Assembly (NCBI GenBank): GCA_964424005.1
Contig: CAYRHA010000001.1
Span: 1-24,601, forward strand
Direction: 5' to 3'
DNA: 24,601 nt
From: an uncultured Muribaculaceae bacterium
GTDB lineage: Bacteria > Bacillota_I > Bacilli_A > RF39 > UBA660
Shown here: positions 7,871-24,601 of the stretch, piece after piece
Layout of the letters: every line of letters begins with the position of its first letter
Numbering within the stretch: position 1 is the stretch's first letter
The notes under the pieces: model-generated
What the model was told of the DNA's origin: nothing
The model's database searches: none
What the model saw: the letters and a program-made list of their open reading frames with translations, nothing else
Program-made: the position numbers and the translations under genes

Positions 7871-7880
7871 CATCTCTTTT
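7852..7880. terminator. Bidirectional terminator between PMM/PGM and der
   Basis: AAAAGAGATGTT-aaatt-AACATCTCTTTT perfect 12 bp stem overlapping the stop at 7868-7870. Confidence 0.8.
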
Positions 7881-9183
7881 ATTCACCCCTGTTTTTAAAT
7901 ACCATAGTTATAGGTGTACCCTCTAAATCAATTGATTCTCTTATTTTATTTTCTATATATCTTTCATAAGAAAAATGAACTAGTTTTTTATCATTAACTT
8001 GAAATAAAAACTTTGGTGGAGTTTTATCTATTTGATTAACATAAAGTATCTTTAACTTCCTTCCTTTATAAGAAGGAGGAGAGTTTAGTAAAACTGCATC
8101 TCCAATAATATTGTTAATAATACTTGTCTTAACTTCCTTATGCCAATTATCATATACTTTAATTACTTCTGGCATTAGAGTATGTATTCTCTTCTTAGTT
8201 AAAGCAGATAAGAACACTATTGGGGCATATTCCACAAATGGGAAATGATTTCTTAATTCTTTCTTAAAAGTAATCATATCTTCTTTTGCTTTATCCCATT
8301 TATTAACTACTAAAACTAAAGCTTTACCACTTTCTATTGCATACCCAGCAATATGCTTATCCTCTTCAATTATACCTTCATCTGCATTTATAATTGTTAG
8401 ACATACATCACTTCTATCTATTGCTTTCATTGATCTCAATATACTATATCTCTCAATATTTTCATAGACTTTTCCTTGTTTTTTTATACCAGCAGTATCT
8501 ATAACTACAAATTGTCTATTTTCATATGTAAAAGGAGTATCAATTGAATCTCTAGTAGTACCAGATATCTCAGATACAATTGATCTTTCTTCATTTAATA
8601 TACAATTTACTAAACTGCTTTTACCAACATTAGGTCTTCCAATTACACAAAACTTAACTACATCTTCACTATAGCTTTCATCCTTAAAGTCTTTAAAATC
8701 TTTAATAATATGTTCCAATAGCTCATATATACCAACATTGTGTTCTGCACTTACATACATATAATCATTAAATCCAAGTTCATAGAAATCATACATATTA
8801 TCTTTTGCTTCTTTATTATCAAACTTATTAACAGCAACCACTATATTCTTGTTACTTTTTCTCAATATATCTCTTATTAATATATCATCTGAAGTAATGC
8901 CATCTTTTCCATCCACAACAAATACAATTGTATCGGCTTCATCGATAGCAAGTTCTGCTTGTACTCTAATATCTTCGCTAAATACATCTTTATTTAATGT
9001 TATTCCGCCTGTATCAATTAAATGAAATTTAATACCCTTATGCTCAACCATTCCATATATTCTATCTCTAGTAACTCCGGGAGTATCTTCTATTATAGAT
9101 ATTCTCTTACCTACTAACTTGTTGAACAATGTAGATTTCCCAACATTTGGTCTACCAATTAATGCTACAACAGGAATCTTCAT
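7879..9183 (-). CDS. der: Ribosome biogenesis GTPase Der (EngA)
   Basis: Two tandem G domains (GRPNVGKS/DTGG/NKFD and GRPNVGKSS/DTAG/NKWD) plus KH-like C-terminus; SD GGAGGTG. Confidence 0.97.
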   Translation of the reverse strand: MKIPVVALIGRPNVGKSTLFNKLVGKRISIIEDTPGVTRDRIYGMVEHKGIKFHLIDTGGITLNKDVFSEDIRVQAELAIDEADTIVFVVDGKDGITSDDILIRDILRKSNKNIVVAVNKFDNKEAKDNMYDFYELGFNDYMYVSAEHNVGIYELLEHIIKDFKDFKDESYSEDVVKFCVIGRPNVGKSSLVNCILNEERSIVSEISGTTRDSIDTPFTYENRQFVVIDTAGIKKQGKVYENIERYSILRSMKAIDRSDVCLTIINADEGIIEEDKHIAGYAIESGKALVLVVNKWDKAKEDMITFKKELRNHFPFVEYAPIVFLSALTKKRIHTLMPEVIKVYDNWHKEVKTSIINNIIGDAVLLNSPPSYKGRKLKILYVNQIDKTPPKFLFQVNDKKLVHFSYERYIENKIRESIDLEGTPITMVFKNRGE

Positions 9184-9207
9184 ATTAACACCTCCAGAAT
9201 CATTAGA

Positions 9208-18909: not shown

Positions 18910-18934
18910 AAAAAGATGATTACTCATCTTTTTT
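18909..18934. terminator. Bidirectional terminator between uppP and rmuC
   Basis: AAAAAAGATGA-ttac-TCATCTTTTTT perfect 11 bp stem. Confidence 0.75.
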
Positions 18935-19999
18935 CTTTGTTTCAATAAACTTATCTACTTCAACTCTATTTATTGATTCAAACTTATCACTTATCTTTTC
19001 AGTAGTTACATTGACATCTTTCACATCTTTAGATACTTTTTCAATACTTCTAGATAATGTTTCCCATCTTTCTTTATATCTACTGAATTCTATACTTAAT
19101 CCTTGTAATTCTTTTTGTATAACTAATGCATATTTATCTCTTTCAGAATTCTTAATTACTGATTGTACTACAGTAAGTACTGCCATTAATGTAGTTGGAG
19201 ATGTTATCCATACTTTTTTTGTATATGCATAATTAATTATGTCTTGATGATATGCGTTTAGCTCAGCAAATAAGGCTTCTGCAGGAAGAAACATAAATGC
19301 TTGGTTAGATGTTACATTTGGTATTATATACTTCTCTGCAATAGCATCTATGTGCTTTTTGACATCTATTTTAAACTTTTTCTCATATAAATCTCTTTCA
19401 ATCTTAGAAATATTCTTATCTACCATATTTTGGTAGTTCTCTAAAGGGAACTTTGAATCTATAGCAACAAGTCCAAGTGGTTCAGGTGCTCTAAGTATTG
19501 CATCTGCTATATTGTTATTTTCAAATTTATATTGCAATTCATATATTTTAGTATTATTATCACCAAATATATTTCTTAATATATTATTTAAGCTTACTTC
19601 TCCAAAAGTACCTCTACTCTTTTTATCAGTTAATATACCTTGTAATGACACTATATCAGTTGATAATGCATCTATTTTCTTTTGTGCTTCATCTATTTTA
19701 GTAAGCCTTTCAACAATTGACATGAAAGTTTTATTACTCTTTTCAAAATTTTGATCCAATCTTTCATTTACTTTATCGTTAATTATTCTCAATCTTTCTT
19801 CAATTCTATTATTCAAAGACTCAAAATCTTGAAACAAGGTTCTATTTAAATCAGATTTAAAATCTCCAATTTCTTTAGTAATGGTATTTTCTAGTTTACC
19901 TAATCTTTCAGTAATATTGCTTTCATTTATATTTTTAAATAATGATATTACACCAAGTATTAACAATAATATAAGTAAACCAATTGTTATATATTCCAT
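18920..19999 (-). CDS. rmuC: DNA recombination protein RmuC
   Basis: N-terminal TM, coiled coil, RGTFGE, IDSKFP, MFLPAE, SPTTL; SD AAGGAGTGA. Confidence 0.92.
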   Translation of the reverse strand: MEYITIGLLILLLILGVISLFKNINESNITERLGKLENTITKEIGDFKSDLNRTLFQDFESLNNRIEERLRIINDKVNERLDQNFEKSNKTFMSIVERLTKIDEAQKKIDALSTDIVSLQGILTDKKSRGTFGEVSLNNILRNIFGDNNTKIYELQYKFENNNIADAILRAPEPLGLVAIDSKFPLENYQNMVDKNISKIERDLYEKKFKIDVKKHIDAIAEKYIIPNVTSNQAFMFLPAEALFAELNAYHQDIINYAYTKKVWITSPTTLMAVLTVVQSVIKNSERDKYALVIQKELQGLSIEFSRYKERWETLSRSIEKVSKDVKDVNVTTEKISDKFESINRVEVDKFIETKKKDE

Positions 20000-20003
20000 A
20001 ATC

Positions 20004-20570
20004 TCACTCCTTTATATTTAATAACTTTTGTATTAACTCTGATAGTAGATATGCCAGCAACATTATCATTAGTATTACCGCTATTACAAGTGGATCACTA
20101 ATACTTTGAATTAAGGTTTTACCAATATATCCCCAGAAGAATACCATAAATGGTTTTCCTATAAGAATAGCTAATATAAATTTTTTTGATTCCATCTTAG
20201 ATAATCCTGCAGATATATTTACTGCAAATGAAGGAGTAAAAGGCATTGCAACTAGTAATGTTAAGCTTCTAAAGCTTAACTTCTTTATTCTCTTTAGAAA
20301 TATATCTACTTTACCATCTAATTTAATGTGTTTATATAATACTTTATTAAATCCATTTTTAAATGCATAGAAAGATAGCAAACAACCACCTATTGTAGCT
20401 ATTAAAGATATTATATATCCTACAACATTACCAAATGCCAACATATTTAATGATACAAATAATCCAAGTGGAAGCACTGGAAATATTGATTCAATAATTA
20501 TTATTAAAAATCCAAATACTGGACCAAGTTGTAAAATCAATTGTACTATTACATCAATAATCTCTTGCAC
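20004..20570 (-). CDS. TVP38/TMEM64 (VTT domain, DedA superfamily; YhjE-like) membrane protein
   Basis: ESIFPVLP, AMPFTPSFAVNISAGLS, GKPF; multi-TM; GTG start after SD AGGTGA. Confidence 0.85.
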   Translation of the reverse strand: MQEIIDVIVQLILQLGPVFGFLIIIIESIFPVLPLGLFVSLNMLAFGNVVGYIISLIATIGGCLLSFYAFKNGFNKVLYKHIKLDGKVDIFLKRIKKLSFRSLTLLVAMPFTPSFAVNISAGLSKMESKKFILAILIGKPFMVFFWGYIGKTLIQSISDPLVIAVILMIMLLAYLLSELIQKLLNIKE

Positions 20571-20607: not shown

Positions 20608-20633
20608 AAAAAAGATATACACAGTATATCTTT
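20608..20633 (-). terminator. Intrinsic terminator of the VirD4-like gene
   Basis: AAAGATATAC-aca-GTATATCTTT perfect stem overlapping the stop, T run on the minus strand. Confidence 0.8.
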
Positions 20634-22716
20634 ATTCTTCATAGAAGAAATCATCAAAGAATTCATCATCAGTAGTATCTTCCTTTTCAATAGATTCGAT
20701 TATTTTATCTATATCTGGATTTACTATTACTTCTTCTTCTTTTTGTTCAGGTACTACTTCTTTTATAGTCTTTTCTTCTACTTTATTTTCATCAATTACT
20801 ACTGGTGTATCCTTTTCACTAGTTGCATTTTGTGCTTTTTCTTCTTTATCTAATTCTTCAATCTTCTCATCAATCTTCTTAATGAGTTCATCAAAATTAA
20901 AGTTTTCTCCTTCGAATGAATTTGGCTTATTAATACTGTTAACTGATGGCCCAAACGAAGATTCTTTAGCCATCTTAAGAGGATCATCAATAACACCGAA
21001 TAAACTATTCATTCTTTTATTTTTTACCATTTCTTTTAAATCAAATAATTTAATTGGTTTCTTCTCTCTAGTTATGTATGTAGCCTTTGGATAATTTGGA
21101 TTATTCCAATTATACTCATCATTTGTTTTAACTTTTGTTTTAAATGGCGCACAACGATGTTTTAATATTACAACGTCTTTATATTTCAATCTTTGCAATT
21201 CTGCAACAGAAATTAAAGGCCTTACTTCTTCTTTATCTTTCTTCTTAACCTTCTTCTCTCCTGCTAATTTACTTATTTCTTCAAGAGATTGTAATTCACT
21301 ACTTAATAAATATATCGTATTAGCACAGTTACCTTTTATAGTTTCTGCTTTTTCTTTTCCATATACTTCATTTAACTGTGCAAAGTTTTGAATAATCAAA
21401 TTAAATCTAATAAGTCTAGATCTTGCTGCAGTTATCATAGTAGTAACATCATTTAATGGAGGCATATTTGCAAACTCATCTAGTATAAAATTTGTTCTAA
21501 TTGATAACTTACCACCATTACCTTGTGCTACATCAATTAAACTTTCATAGCATTGTTTAATAAATATTGTTGCTAAAGCATGATATGTTTTCTTTTCATC
21601 TTGAATTACTAAGAATACGGCAGTCTTCTCTTTACCTATATCAAACATATTAAAATCACTATGTGATAACATCTCTGATAAGTTTTCTGCCATAGCAAAT
21701 ATATTAACTTTTTGTCTGAATACAGATACTATACTTCCTCTAGTTTCATTTGGTGCATTAATAGTACCAGCAGAATTAATATATGCAGTATTAGAAGATT
21801 CTTTTGTTGCAAAATATTCTTTAATATATGTTGAATTATTAAACTTCTCTTCACCTGTTGTTAACATTTGTATTATTGAGTTTAAATTAATTTCTTCTTC
21901 TTTTGCATCTTGAAATAATCCTTGCGCTAAACCAGTAAAGAAGTCAGCTGCTGTGTTTTGCCAAAATGGATCTTCAGTCTTAGCTTCATATAATATATTA
22001 ATTGCTAAGTCTCTAAGTAATTCATTAGATTTATCTTTATTTCCAGATTTATACAATTCATAAGGTAATGTTAAAGGATTCCATGCATGTCCCATTTGAG
22101 GATCTCTAAAATTTAATACAATTATTTTATATCCTCTTTCCTTTAACATTTCAGCATTCTTTTCATATATCTCGCCTTTAGGGTCAGTAATAATCATTGA
22201 CTCTCCCTTTTTAGCTAATATATTTACTAATGGATTTACTATACAATAAGTCTTTCCTGATCCAGTAGCACCAATTACAATTGAGTGGGATTCACCATCA
22301 TCTACCCATGTTTCTTGGCCTTTTGAAAACAAAGGCATTCCTGCATAATTATAATTTCTATCAGATTGGTATATCTTTTTAACACCAATTGCGCTTATTA
22401 TGTCTTTCTCTTTAGCAAAACTTTCATATCCTTCAAATTTCTTTCCATCAGTGCTTATTCCAAATCCTTTTTCTCTTTCAAAAAAGTATGATGAAACAAC
22501 TAATATTATTGCAAACAATGCTATTGAATAAAATACTATCGTATAAACTAAATATGTTGGAGAAAAAGCTTCCACGGGGTTTAATCCATAAAAACTTCCT
22601 GTTTTTGAAAATGTAGATAAATTAAGTATTGCTAAAGCCACTATATATAATAAAAATATACAAAATAATACAAAATATAGTATATCTTGTGGTTCAGCTT
22701 TAAATTTTAATTTCAC
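20632..22716 (-). CDS. virD4: Type IV coupling protein, VirD4/TraG family ATPase
   Basis: Two N-terminal TMs, Walker A GATGSGKT, TDPKGE, WNPL, DPFW, Walker B FILDEF, ARSR, IIQNFAQL..VYG, GNC, RPLI; SD AGGAGG before GTG. Confidence 0.92.
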   Translation of the reverse strand: MKLKFKAEPQDILYFVLFCIFLLYIVALAILNLSTFSKTGSFYGLNPVEAFSPTYLVYTIVFYSIALFAIILVVSSYFFEREKGFGISTDGKKFEGYESFAKEKDIISAIGVKKIYQSDRNYNYAGMPLFSKGQETWVDDGESHSIVIGATGSGKTYCIVNPLVNILAKKGESMIITDPKGEIYEKNAEMLKERGYKIIVLNFRDPQMGHAWNPLTLPYELYKSGNKDKSNELLRDLAINILYEAKTEDPFWQNTAADFFTGLAQGLFQDAKEEEINLNSIIQMLTTGEEKFNNSTYIKEYFATKESSNTAYINSAGTINAPNETRGSIVSVFRQKVNIFAMAENLSEMLSHSDFNMFDIGKEKTAVFLVIQDEKKTYHALATIFIKQCYESLIDVAQGNGGKLSIRTNFILDEFANMPPLNDVTTMITAARSRLIRFNLIIQNFAQLNEVYGKEKAETIKGNCANTIYLLSSELQSLEEISKLAGEKKVKKKDKEEVRPLISVAELQRLKYKDVVILKHRCAPFKTKVKTNDEYNWNNPNYPKATYITREKKPIKLFDLKEMVKNKRMNSLFGVIDDPLKMAKESSFGPSVNSINKPNSFEGENFNFDELIKKIDEKIEELDKEEKAQNATSEKDTPVVIDENKVEEKTIKEVVPEQKEEEVIVNPDIDKIIESIEKEDTTDDEFFDDFFYEE

Positions 22717-22748
22717 ATTAACTCCTCCTAACAGATTCCATTAACATT

Positions 22749-22778
22749 ATAATACCAAATAACCTAGTAACATTTCAA
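22749..22778 (-). promoter_or_regulatory. Dedicated sigma70 promoter of the VirD4-like gene
   Basis: TTGAAA (22778-22773), 18 bp, TG-extended TATTAT (22754-22749); an overlapping TATAAT at 22751-22746. Confidence 0.6.
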
Positions 22779-22799
22779 GTAAAGTCAACAAAATTATTA

Positions 22800-24601
22800 T
22801 TAATAACAAGGATTCTTGTAATTTGTTGCGCTTGTATACAAATTAATTGGATTAAATAAATTTTCTCTAATAGATGAACTACCCTTCCATATTTGGAAAT
22901 GTAAGTGCCTTCCAGTTGTATTAATACCAGTATTACCCATTGTTGCAATAACCTGTCTGGTTTCAAGAACTTGACCTTCAGAAACTTTAACAGATCCAGC
23001 TAATAAATGTCCATAATATGTTGTATATGATTCTCCATCTATATCATATCTGATTTTTATGTATATTCCACCTTCCAAACTATTACCAACATCTACAACG
23101 GTTCCAGGTACCGTTCCTACTGAATATATATAATAATTCTCTGTTACGTTATATACAGCATCTATACCAGTATGAAATCCAGCAAATCTTCCTAATCTAT
23201 ATCCAAAATATGATGTGATTGAGTAAGCACCCTCGAAAGGCGGTTGTAAAACACTAACAACATTTTGTGGTATAGTAGCCATTTCTTGACATGTGGATAA
23301 TCTTTCGTCAAAATATAACATATCTGCAAGTAAATAAGTATTTTTTATGTCGTTAATTACTCTTGTTTTTTCCTCATCAGTTCCATCCTCAAAAAACTTG
23401 TTTGAATATAGTGTTTTTAGTATATTTGATTCAGCTAAATAATCAAAATACTTATCATAATCAATTTCACTATAGTAATCATAAATAGTAGAATTAACAT
23501 TTGCTTCATTACAAATCTTTTTTATATGGGTCTTTATATCAACACTTTTTGAATTGACATATTCTGTTTCATATACAATTACATTATCTTTTACTTTTTC
23601 AGTACACAAATATTCCACTTCTCTCATAGAAACCATATTACGTGCTAAAAAGGGAATAGCAGCTACTCTAATATTAGCTCTATCAACATTTAATTCTTCA
23701 CTATTTGATGATGCAGAATTTTCTAAATTAACGTCGTAAAATAAAGTGGACACTAATAAAGATATATCTAGTTCAATAGCATTTGTATCGTAATAATAAA
23801 TATATTCTTCTATTATTTCGTTTTTTACTTTTTCTTCGTTGGTTACAAAACCATCAAAAACAACAAAGTTACCGATTCTTTGAATATTCAATGCTGCTTT
23901 CTCACCAACATCATAATCAGTTAATCCTCCAAAAACATTTGAAAGTATTGATGATAAAGAAGCCACTAACACGAATGGTAATAATACTAAAGATATAACA
24001 AAAAGAAATGGTAGAACAAAAAGAAGAATTTTAAATCCTTTCTTTTTGTTTTTTCCTAGTAGTTCCTCAGTTCCTTCATCAAAATCAGACTCATCTTCGT
24101 TTTCAACTTCTTCATTTCCAGAGCTTAATTTATATTTATCTTTCTTTTTTGCTTCTTCATCTAATCTTGTAGTTTTTTTCTCAATATTATTATCCAATTT
24201 TGAATCTTTTTGCTTTATTTCATTTTTTAGTGAATTGCCATCAACATTTTTATTTGGTATTTTTGAACCATCTTGTATATTTGGTTGTATGCCTTGTTGT
24301 TTTATTGGAGTTGTAGAATTTTGTATAGCAGATGCACCATTTGCTGCTGTGGAAGCTGTTTGTGTTGAAGCAGCTGTATTTGCTGCTGCTGCAGTCTTTG
24401 CAGCTGCAGCTGTTTTAGCTGCCGTTGCTGTTTTTGCTGCTGCCGCCGCAGCAACAGGTGCTGCGTTTCTAACAATACTTAATACATTAACACCGTCATC
24501 TCCAATACTAGAAACATTTTTTTCTAATAATTCAATTACAAATAATGCAAGATAAAAAAAGATAGCAATGTATAATGTTGAATTACCATTAAATTTGTTT
24601 A
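22800..24601 (-). CDS. Membrane-anchored M23-family zinc metallopeptidase; 5' end unresolved, frame open to the window edge
   Basis: C-terminal HTGID, YGHL and HLHF motifs; one TM after KNKKKG; hand translation finds no stop between the ORF-track TTG (24197) and 24601. Confidence 0.85.
   Translation of the reverse strand, partial: NKFNGNSTLYIAIFFYLALFVIELLEKNVSSIGDDGVNVLSIVRNAAPVAAAAAAKTATAAKTAAAAKTAAAANTAASTQTASTAANGASAIQNSTTPIKQQGIQPNIQDGSKIPNKNVDGNSLKNEIKQKDSKLDNNIEKKTTRLDEEAKKKDKYKLSSGNEEVENEDESDFDEGTEELLGKNKKKGFKILLFVLPFLFVISLVLLPFVLVASLSSILSNVFGGLTDYDVGEKAALNIQRIGNFVVFDGFVTNEEKVKNEIIEEYIYYYDTNAIELDISLLVSTLFYDVNLENSASSNSEELNVDRANIRVAAIPFLARNMVSMREVEYLCTEKVKDNVIVYETEYVNSKSVDIKTHIKKICNEANVNSTIYDYYSEIDYDKYFDYLAESNILKTLYSNKFFEDGTDEEKTRVINDIKNTYLLADMLYFDERLSTCQEMATIPQNVVSVLQPPFEGAYSITSYFGYRLGRFAGFHTGIDAVYNVTENYYIYSVGTVPGTVVDVGNSLEGGIYIKIRYDIDGESYTTYYGHLLAGSVKVSEGQVLETRQVIATMGNTGINTTGRHLHFQIWKGSSSIRENLFNPINLYTSATNYKNPCY
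24354..24443 (-). repeat. Five degenerate 18-bp tandem coding repeats
   Basis: Encode AAAKTA, TAAKTA, AAAKTA, AAANTA, ASTQTA; K/K/K/N/Q codons fall exactly 18 bp apart (24432, 24414, 24396, 24378, 24360). Confidence 0.8.

Follow-up and report, generated by a model that had tools for sequence, protein, structure and literature searches.

Among described type IV secretion systems (T4SSs), the closest to the locus considered here is that of the Gram-positive plasmid pLS20, whose genes 34 to 54 code in turn for an adhesin, a 126-amino-acid (aa) protein, VirB11, two membrane proteins, small proteins, a 361-aa protein, VirD4, an extended VirB6, a 103-aa protein with two transmembrane helices, a 192-aa protein, a 631-aa VirB4, VirB8, and VirB1 (PMC8557374). 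Its relaxosome is encoded by genes 56 to 58 (Aux1, Aux2, and the MobL relaxase) and its primase by gene 60 (PMC8557374). Here we describe a colinear locus in the order RF39, a widespread uncultured lineage with reduced genomes that inhabits animal guts and anaerobic digesters and whose mode of life has yet to be established (PMC13155120, PMC7301438). This locus spans ~25 to 30 kb, and its last two genes lie at one end of a 24,601-nucleotide (nt) stretch of DNA (the window), which is the entire contig C1 of a metagenome-assembled genome (MAG; G000, assembly GCA_964424005.1) of 487 kb in 63 contigs, 64.6% complete and with ~27% G+C. They encode a VirD4-type coupling protein and a cell wall hydrolase, and the original prediction, made from the window alone, had proposed them as candidates for part of a domesticated T4SS. 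The data from the same genome and its relatives support that reading, and what the machine does (protein export, contact, or DNA transfer) is inferred. We put at roughly 0.8 the probability that the locus is a chromosomal, vertically inherited, pLS20-like T4SS of the mating-pair formation class FATA (MPF-FATA), devoid of DNA-processing and integration genes and core to the family that carries it, which is probably UBA660 of RF39, a family of small-genome Bacilli.

The Rickettsiales vir homolog (rvh) and other exapted effector T4SSs are likewise vertically inherited and relaxase free, keep VirD4, and occur in reduced genomes. They are diderm P-type systems with VirB7, VirB9, and VirB10, eukaryotic targets, and genes scattered in islands, an architecture not homologous to that of the RF39 locus; by analogy, they may model how the RF39 machine works. 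Mycoplasma integrative and conjugative elements (ICEs) are mobile and patchy and carry a DDE transposase, whereas the RF39 locus is fixed; their VirB4/TraE proteins, from a related reduced lineage of Bacilli, are the best curated family for the VirB4 of RF39. With respect to the Tad/Flp pilus, the ATPase, CpaB-like, TadB-like, and TadZ-like parts of the RF39 locus match below cut-off or only by predicted structure or language-model features.

The T4SSs of Patescibacteria are chromosomal, derived from MPF-FATA, and mostly devoid of relaxases, and their describers concluded that they were co-opted for a role other than conjugation (PMC12102498). The RF39 locus resembles them in being a monoderm conjugation-type T4SS with VirB2-like pilins, encoded on the chromosome of small-genome, metabolically dependent bacteria, but it belongs to Bacillota, class Bacilli, and has a Tad-like/VirB11 module and a sortase with adhesins. 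Further, most of the patescibacterial VirD4 homologs lie far from virB4 and one was reported to be nonessential (PMC12102498), whereas the VirD4 of RF39 is in the operon and strongly conserved. No account of the locus turned up in our search of the literature linking RF39, RFN20, or Tenericutes with T4SSs, pili, or conjugation, and the genomic studies of RF39 that this search retrieved make no mention of secretion systems or pili.

Architecture of the locus and comparison with pLS20

The genes and motifs of the locus within the window, all on the minus strand, are as follows:

20632-22716, minus strand: VirD4-type type IV coupling protein (T4CP) of the CD1115 family, 694 aa, GTG start, assigned by profile matches
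22249-22272, minus strand: Walker A motif of VirD4, GATGSGKT, residues 149 to 156, intact on inspection of the sequence
21472-21492, minus strand: Walker B motif of VirD4, NFILDEF, residues 409 to 415, intact on inspection of the sequence
20644-20661, minus strand: C-terminal FFDDFF motif in the acidic tail of VirD4, from the ortholog comparison
22800-24601, minus strand: cell wall hydrolase (VirB1 analogue), 614 aa in full with the first 15 codons missing, assigned by its Peptidase_M23 match and a near-identical strain
22896-23174, minus strand: M23 catalytic core in the sequence, with the zinc ligand motifs HTGID (23160-23174) and HLHF (22896-22907) both intact

The coupling protein is recognized by the Pfam profile T4SS-DNA_transf (9e-58, 196.7 bits; cut-off, 20.1), by TrwB_AAD_bind, which represents the all-alpha domain (1.1e-27), and by TraG-D_C, and it scores 308.4 bits against a cut-off of 250 with the NCBIfam model NF045973 (conju_CD1115, "VirD4-like conjugal transfer protein, CD1115 family"). 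A sequence search of the PDB gave weak matches to TrwB and DotL. Two N-terminal hydrophobic transmembrane helices within residues 12 to 80 are followed by the nucleotide-binding domain, the all-alpha domain, and a variable acidic linker, and the profile scores and both Walker motifs agree with the prediction of a full-length coupling protein with an intact ATPase site. We compared 30 VirD4 orthologs, drawn from 28 other genera, the sister species G002, and the near-identical strain (L012-L040 and L175). The reading frame is intact in all 30, and the FFDDFF motif is exact in 28, the other two having FFNDFF and FFDAFF, while the ~100 aa ahead of it are conserved in neither sequence nor length. 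A motif kept near invariant next to a linker that varies freely points to a docking partner that is itself conserved, and FFDDFF is probably a docking motif for an adaptor or a substrate. As a weak sign of expression, a metatranscriptome library, available as assembled contigs without depth, strand, or transcript ends, holds a 414-nt contig that is 99.5% identical to the VirD4 gene.

Just past position 24601 lies the 3' end of VirB4 and not a relaxase, an integrase, or an att site. This is seen in the Logan contig L175, from a related sample, in which the hydrolase is identical to that of the window at 598 of 599 residues and is 614 aa long, so that 15 codons are missing here; 22 bp upstream of it ends a gene whose last 38 residues match the VirB4 C terminus of a relative at 36 of 38 positions. 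The rest of the machine, which the original prediction had placed beyond the window or elsewhere, has its upstream half on another contig of the same MAG. This contig (C33, 5 kb) extends from the TadB-like gene through the first 428 residues of VirB6, where it ends, and encodes TadB/C-like proteins, a 56-aa pilin-like protein, a 328-aa TadZ/ParA-like protein, a VirB2-like protein (T4SS_pilin, 3e-4), and a VirB6-like protein (TrbL_4, 2.4e-8). The proteins are 39 to 75% identical to those of a relative whose VirD4 is 70% identical to that of the window and in which the whole cluster is found, co-oriented, on a single 98.8-kb contig in this order:

1: CpaB/RcpC-like protein
2: VirB11/CpaF/TadA-like ATPase
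3: two polytopic membrane proteins
4: 58-aa pilin-like protein
5: 131-aa protein
6: 328-aa ParA/TadZ-like protein
7: VirB2-like protein
8: 716-aa VirB6-like protein
9: TcpE/VirB3-like protein
10: VirB4, as open reading frames (ORFs) of 184 aa and 594 aa
11: 844-aa M23 hydrolase
12: 232-aa lipoprotein
13: VirD4
14: prepilin-like protein
15: VTT, RmuC, UppP, and asparaginyl-tRNA synthetase (AsnRS)

The VTT, RmuC, UppP, and AsnRS flank is common to the cluster of this relative and the window. Further upstream, three near-complete relatives have a DUF5411 protein, a fast-evolving protein of 960 to 1000 aa (1296 aa in the outlying family f14), a sortase, and an Ig-like surface protein (seen in the loci L178:5926-13351, L179, L181, and L183); the sortase is recognized by Pfam in G022, and in both G022 and G023 the housekeeping gene greA forms the left border. 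The locus is thus bordered by GreA and by VTT/RmuC and consists of four parts: the sortase and surface proteins, a Tad-like/VirB11-like pilus module, the VirB2-, VirB6-, and VirB3-like proteins with the split VirB4, and the hydrolase with VirD4.

The order of genes common to the RF39 locus and pLS20 (Val-Calvo et al. 2021, PMC8557374) is a large adhesin, a protein of ~130 aa, the VirB11/CpaF-like ATPase, two polytopic proteins (~270 and ~250 aa), small pilin-like proteins, a protein of ~330 to 360 aa, the extended VirB6, a protein of ~100 aa with two transmembrane helices, a protein of ~190 aa with a VirB4 of ~600 to 630 aa, and a cell wall hydrolase; a VirD4 of the CD1115 family is also common to both. 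This colinearity with genes 34 to 54, split VirB4 included, was drawn from the relatives together with the two contigs of G000, in which VirB4 is unassembled. At its start, the adhesin and the 126-aa protein of pLS20 (genes 34 and 36) are mirrored in RF39 by the divergent 900- to 1300-aa protein beside the DUF5411 protein. Unlike that of pLS20, the locus of RF39 lies on the chromosome, where it is vertically inherited and core; it lacks genes for a relaxosome, primase, single-stranded DNA-binding protein (SSB), topoisomerase, or ArdC; its VirD4 stands at the end of the operon and not ahead of VirB6; it has in addition a CpaB/RcpC-like gene and a sortase; VirB8 (pLS20 gene 53, NTF2-like) was not recognized; and the domains of its hydrolase vary by genus, being M23 in G000. 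The parts in common are confirmed by a pLS20-like plasmid of B. halotolerans, whose ATPase, VirB4, and VirD4 are, respectively, 32%, 23%, and 26% identical to those of RF39. This plasmid also encodes SSB, topoisomerase, ArdC, and a MobQ relaxase, none of which is present in the RF39 locus.

The division of VirB4 into ORFs of 184 and 594 aa is family-wide (e.g., L009:14104-16439), and genes 51 and 52 of pLS20 are likewise divided into 192 and 631 aa; the split is therefore an old feature of this type of T4SS and not a frameshift. The best curated family for the VirB4 of the cluster is that of the Mycoplasma ICE ATPases (Mbov_0397 family VirB4/TraE; 3.1e-104, 349 bits, below the cut-off of 590), and its ATPase matches the VirB11, TrbB, and TadA families about equally, each below cut-off. 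The first polytopic protein (297 aa) is TadB-like by predicted structure (template modeling score [TM-score], 0.88), the CpaB match reaches 34.6 bits against a cut-off of 71, and the 328-aa protein is ParA/CbiA-like by language-model features only, lacks a canonical Walker A motif, and retrieved nothing in a sequence search of the PDB. The 56-aa pilin-like protein has a glycine followed by a hydrophobic helix and lacks the EY at +5/+6 of the Flp processing motif. Searches of the locus revealed no match to VirB8/NTF2 and no prepilin peptidase gene, one A24 gene being located elsewhere in the genome (C17:1068-1394). We also observed that many proteins of G000 have a prepilin-type N-terminal methylation motif (N_methyl; contigs C3, C5, C9, C10, C13, C23, and C46). 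The protein of ~230 aa ahead of VirD4 in most genera is an LppM/DUF3153-like lipoprotein, which is absent from the window, as is a 436-aa prepilin-type gene that several genera have between VirD4 and VTT.

Searches of G000 by tblastn with the VirB4 of the relative, its N-terminal piece, and the VirB3-like protein retrieved nothing, and VirB4 was likewise not found in G001 or G002, the other two assemblies of the genus; an AAA_10 search of G000 recovered only VirD4 and an unrelated 756-aa ORF on contig C14, both below cut-off. Three independent assemblies of this genus or strain (the window at 24601 and the starts of G002:C27 and L175) break at the VirB4/hydrolase junction or within ~1.3 kb of it. 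The breaks probably reflect assembly tangling at a gene that is highly conserved among co-occurring relatives, and loss of VirB4 seems unlikely.

The hydrolase frame (22800-24599, minus strand) is open as far as the contig end; given the 614-aa protein of the L175 strain, the TTG at 24197 would be an incorrect start. The protein is bitopic and consists of a transmembrane helix, an alanine-rich low-complexity stretch that lies between its two membrane helices, a charged linker, the second transmembrane helix (23955-24035), a domain of ~200 aa, and the C-terminal M23 endopeptidase. The Peptidase_M23 match (4.6e-15, 56 bits; Pfam cut-off, 28.7) is accompanied by a fold similar to those of lysostaphin, LytM, and EnpA (Foldseek; E, ~1e-7; target TM-score, ~0.7). 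The fold prediction for the whole protein is poor (predicted local distance difference test [pLDDT], 63.6), and the middle domain, folded alone, is well predicted (pLDDT, 77). No PDB fold match above noise was obtained for this domain (Foldseek E of ≥0.16; VIA-align Z of ≤5.5); scattered lysozyme-like matches (Z of 3.3 to 4.8) are too weak to use, and the LytM domain of PrgK is among the weak fold matches. With no fold match for the middle domain, a VirB8-like domain fused to the hydrolase and a second muramidase domain were both set aside as unproven. A homolog search with the hydrolase returned only two proteins, since it is fast evolving and rich in low complexity. On the plus strand, terminator-like matches at 24350-24425 are artefacts of a GCTGCAGC-rich repeat, which on the minus strand encodes the alanine-rich stretch of the hydrolase (AAAAKTA repeats).

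Among 25 hydrolases of the family, the catalytic domain is swapped between genera, with M23 in 13, SpoIID in 5, NlpC/P60 in 4, and CHAP in 3; other domains are glucosaminidase, lysozyme, and muramidase. Like PrgK of pCF10 (LytM/M23, SLT, and CHAP), CwlT of ICEBs1, and TcpG of pCW3, the RF39 hydrolase is membrane anchored, modular, and encoded beside VirB4, but the G000 version has a single recognizable catalytic domain in addition to the ~200-aa middle domain. Domain variation of this sort is the pattern of Gram-positive VirB1 analogues, of which these three proteins are examples.

Distribution and vertical inheritance

One high-scoring VirD4 ortholog, 50 to 84% identical, was found in 35 of the 36 other genomes of the family, each representing a different genus. 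In a second sample of 399 Bacilli genomes, each at least 85% complete, an ortholog is present in 49 of 50 genomes of the family, whereas in the other 29 Bacilli families (~345 genomes) f7 and f14 yielded a single match apiece and the remaining 27 families yielded none. The same gene order is seen in 19 of 20 loci from different genera, and across these loci VirB4 is 67 to 82% identical, which is higher than AsnRS. At least 11 other genera, as well as G002, retain the VTT-RmuC flank, which marks the fixed chromosomal end of the locus. The gene is therefore near universal, single copy, nearly confined to the family, and largely syntenic.

For 25 genomes, the phylogenetic trees of VirD4 and RpoB resolve into the same six clades, which are highly supported; both trees place the genus of G000 as sister to the same genus and have the two outlying families branching outside the main body of the family. 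In a 21-genome set, 8 of 18 bipartitions are common to the two trees (mean of 0.17 and maximum of 3 upon label shuffling), and the patristic distances are correlated (Mantel r = 0.67, matched in 0 of 2,000 permutations), the mean tree distance of VirD4 being 1.5 times that of RpoB. Between G000 and its sister species G002, dN/dS is 0.13 for VirD4, similar to 0.07 for the neighboring RmuC and 0.11 for VTT, with dS near saturation; VirD4 is thus under purifying selection. The vertical inheritance that the original prediction had proposed is thus borne out by the distribution, the fixed flank, and the congruence with the host tree, for which RpoB was used, and the locus is a vertically inherited core feature of the family. 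Exceptions are few: G317 has VirB4 only, and in G012 a distance of 37 kb separates VirB4 from VirD4 within one contig (C5; 56067 and 94975).

The sequencing runs that contain DNA of the MAG are bioreactor, wastewater, and anaerobic-digester metagenomes. The locus is present in both habitats of the lineage, in a digester-type MAG here and in gut MAGs for most of the named relatives.

Substrate, role, and rival explanations

The flank of VirD4 in the window was predicted to lack an integrase, a relaxase, and a tRNA, and we confirmed that none of these is found there. A search of 41 family genomes with profiles of five relaxase families, which leave out MOBC, MOBH, MOBF, and MOBB, gave the following:

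Rep_trans: 0 of 41 genomes
MobA_MobL: 0 of 41 genomes
Relaxase PF03432: 3 of 41 genomes, over cut-off
MobL (pLS20 type): 4 of 41 genomes
Mob_Pre: 17 of 41 genomes

No relaxase of these families adjoins the cluster in the 41 genomes, and none occurs in or beside it in 20 loci; 22 genomes, including one that is 98% complete in 5 contigs, have none of the five. Relaxase genes of the PF03432 and MobL families adjoin distant (~35% identical) second VirD4 paralogs, and these sets are genuine patchy mobile elements that act as an internal control. The Mob_Pre (MOBV) genes are often multicopy and located away from the locus (e.g., G004:C1:86008, G023:C6:64725, and G066 with five matches), and they may belong to mobilizable elements for which the resident machine serves as the pore. 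No tyrosine or serine recombinase was found on the contig of the cluster in G022 (98% complete, 5 contigs), G023, or G009, att repeats not being part of the search, and in the plasmids of PLSDB the VirD4, VirB4, and ATPase are at most ~32% identical. Because no DNA-mobilizing or integration genes lie beside the locus, the machine probably serves the cell itself.

On the basis of its predicted parts, such a machine might work as follows. Sortase-anchored surface proteins and the Tad-like/VirB11-like module would contact another cell, the membrane-anchored M23 endopeptidase would open the peptidoglycan locally, and the VirB6-like, VirB3-like, and split VirB4 proteins would form and power a membrane channel, at the entrance of which a VirD4 hexamer would pick the substrate and feed it into the channel, an adaptor or the substrate itself probably docking at the FFDDFF tail. 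To our knowledge, those T4SSs without a relaxase but with VirD4 that have been studied translocate proteins (Rickettsiales rvh, Dot/Icm, and the Xanthomonas X-T4SS). For this reason, we tentatively favor, at a little less than even odds, one or more proteins delivered to or onto neighboring microbes as the substrate; DNA without a linked relaxase is a lesser possibility, a substrate or role of another kind is rather improbable, and DNA uptake is more improbable still. Contact with a host, one of the roles initially suggested, is unlikely here, as the digester origin of the MAG argues against an animal-cell target. A more far-reaching reading, which we regard as doubtful, is that the locus encodes an obligate cell-to-cell interaction organelle, the equivalent in Bacilli of the patescibacterial T4SS. 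Sortase-anchored adhesins and a Tad-like fiber, built by a machine derived from conjugation, would attach to other microbes, and a VirD4-gated channel would deliver proteins into or onto the partner cells or exchange macromolecules with them, an adaptor or a set of effectors docking at the FFDDFF tail.

DNA transfer with a relaxase supplied in trans is a serious rival, given how common Mob_Pre elements are in the family. The machine would then be a resident "public" mating pore, mobilizing small relaxase-bearing elements or chromosomal DNA, as in Mycoplasma chromosomal transfer, by means of a relaxase that acts in trans or went unrecognized. Its VirD4 belongs to a conjugation family, CD1115, and keeps the all-alpha domain of the TrwB type, which is of a DNA-binding kind; the best curated match of its VirB4, at 349 bits and below cut-off, is to an ICE ATPase family; five of the 17 genomes with Mob_Pre (G004, G016, G023, G031, and G035) have no second VirD4 and therefore no other resident pore; and all characterized Gram-positive relatives, including pLS20, move DNA (PMC8557374). 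However, none of the five relaxase families is found in over half of the genomes (the 22 noted above), the locus is devoid of the SSB, topoisomerase, ArdC, primase, and relaxosome genes of the plasmid version, and strict vertical inheritance with conservation at the level of housekeeping genes is hard to explain by occasional hitchhiking elements alone. On balance, we consider this pore unlikely. A DNA uptake machine comparable to ComB of H. pylori or the archaeal Ced/Ted systems could feed a lineage that lacks nucleotide synthesis, and RF39 is indeed reported to be without de novo synthesis of nucleic acid precursors (PMC13155120); further, the Tad-like pilus module could bind DNA, and VirB4 has weak matches to CedB/CedD. 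Against this, ComEC is present in 40 of 41 genomes and, with the many N_methyl proteins and the A24 peptidase, constitutes an ordinary competence route, while a cell with a single membrane has no periplasmic step to bridge. The uptake T4SSs known to us (ComB and Ced) do not need a coupling protein of the VirD4 type, yet few parts of the RF39 locus are as well conserved as its VirD4. With both a ComEC route and a retained VirD4, an uptake machine is very unlikely.

The least probable reading, which we reject, is that of an ordinary ICE, either entire or reduced to a decaying remnant, for which the assembly simply missed the relaxase and integrase. It could appeal to the contig ending inside the cluster of a MAG that is 64.6% complete and to the usual residence of CD1115 family coupling proteins in ICEs and plasmids. 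Yet it is VirB4 that comes directly past the contig end; the gene is single copy and in the same chromosomal place in 35 of 36 and 49 of 50 genomes; its tree is congruent with that of RpoB; dN/dS is 0.13, with frames intact in 30 of 30 orthologs; near-complete relatives have no recombinase near the locus; and the true ICE-like sets, with a relaxase and a distant VirD4 paralog, occur in few genomes and look different.

Several points weigh against the interpretation of the locus as a core, domesticated T4SS. None of the three assemblies of the genus contains VirB4, the VirB3-like gene, or the 3' part of VirB6, and these are placed here by the contig of a near-identical strain that has only the last 38 codons of VirB4. 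One genome of the family that is 92% complete (G003) has neither VirD4 nor VirB4, and the machine is thus dispensable in at least one lineage. As the relaxase search covered five families, a relaxase of MOBC, MOBH, MOBF, MOBB, or an unknown class could act in trans, and, as Mob_Pre relaxases are common in the family (17 of 41 genomes), the pore could still let DNA through. The sign of expression was drawn from the assembled contigs of a single library, in which DNA may be present. Last, the function is one that we infer, no substrate, effector, or target having been found.

An exapted conjugation-type T4SS is a known kind of system, to which RF39 adds a version for which we found no published description and, as a new detail, the FFDDFF motif. 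That a conjugation-type machine is kept even in genomes of ~0.6 Mb, and is about as conserved as RNA polymerase, points to dependence on cell contact, and the locus gives studies that enrich RF39, image it, or probe its interactions something concrete to work with. After Patescibacteria, RF39 is a second and independent example of a lineage with reduced genomes that has taken over a monoderm mating machine, suggesting a general route of reductive evolution, and the locus presents a natural experiment on what a coupling protein recognizes without a relaxase. Given the conserved Tad-like/VirB11 module, one may ask whether Gram-positive T4SSs make a fiber. Should the organelle reading be true, RF39, among the commonest uncultured lineages of guts and digesters, would be a contact-dependent symbiont or parasite of microbes, and T4SSs of the pLS20 type would build a pilus-like fiber.

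Expression signals and housekeeping flank

The expression signals of VirD4 and the genes beyond it, all on the minus strand, are as follows:

22749-22778, minus strand: promoter-like TTGAAA-18 nt-TATTAT with an upstream TG extension, 10 of 12 consensus matches, within the 83 nt that separate the hydrolase gene from VirD4
22724-22729, minus strand: Shine-Dalgarno (SD) sequence AGGAGG, 7 nt ahead of the GTG (22714-22716), found in the sequence and kept in G002
20608-20633, minus strand: terminator-like hairpin in the sequence, with a 10-bp A+T-rich stem, the loop TGT, and a T-run, overlapping the VirD4 stop codon
18920-20570, minus strand: housekeeping flank of VTT/DedA (20004-20570) and RmuC (18920-19999), assigned by profiles and synteny

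The promoter-like site, SD sequence, and terminator-like hairpin that had been named for VirD4 are all present, and the hexamers of the first and the hairpin of the last are kept in the sister species. The hairpin shows a compensatory change there, from T-A to C-G, and does not pass the G+C rule of the terminator scan. Promoter-like sites are not enriched in this 28% G+C stretch (19 found versus 34 in shuffles), so that the case for the putative VirD4 promoter, which is a consensus match only, is made by its conservation in G002 and not by statistics. The further proposal, of a transcription unit made up of VirD4 by itself, can apply to this genus at most; in most genera VirD4 lies inside the operon, ~15 nt after the lipoprotein gene.

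The 61-bp gap reported between VirD4 and the nearest housekeeping gene, VTT/DedA, is as predicted; VTT/DedA and RmuC are followed by UppP, on the opposite strand, and then by AsnRS. The composition is also host-like, as had been judged by eye: the G+C content of VirD4 (28.1%) and of the hydrolase (29.9%) is like that of the window (27.8%), the genome, and the neighboring core genes. The sequence GGWGTTAAT occurs four times in the window against 0.68 expected (9184-9192, 22717-22725, and 24486-24494 on the minus strand and 2475-2483 on the plus strand), including directly 5' of the start codons of VirD4 and of the gene at 7879-9183, and it may be a preferred SD-spacer context in this genome.

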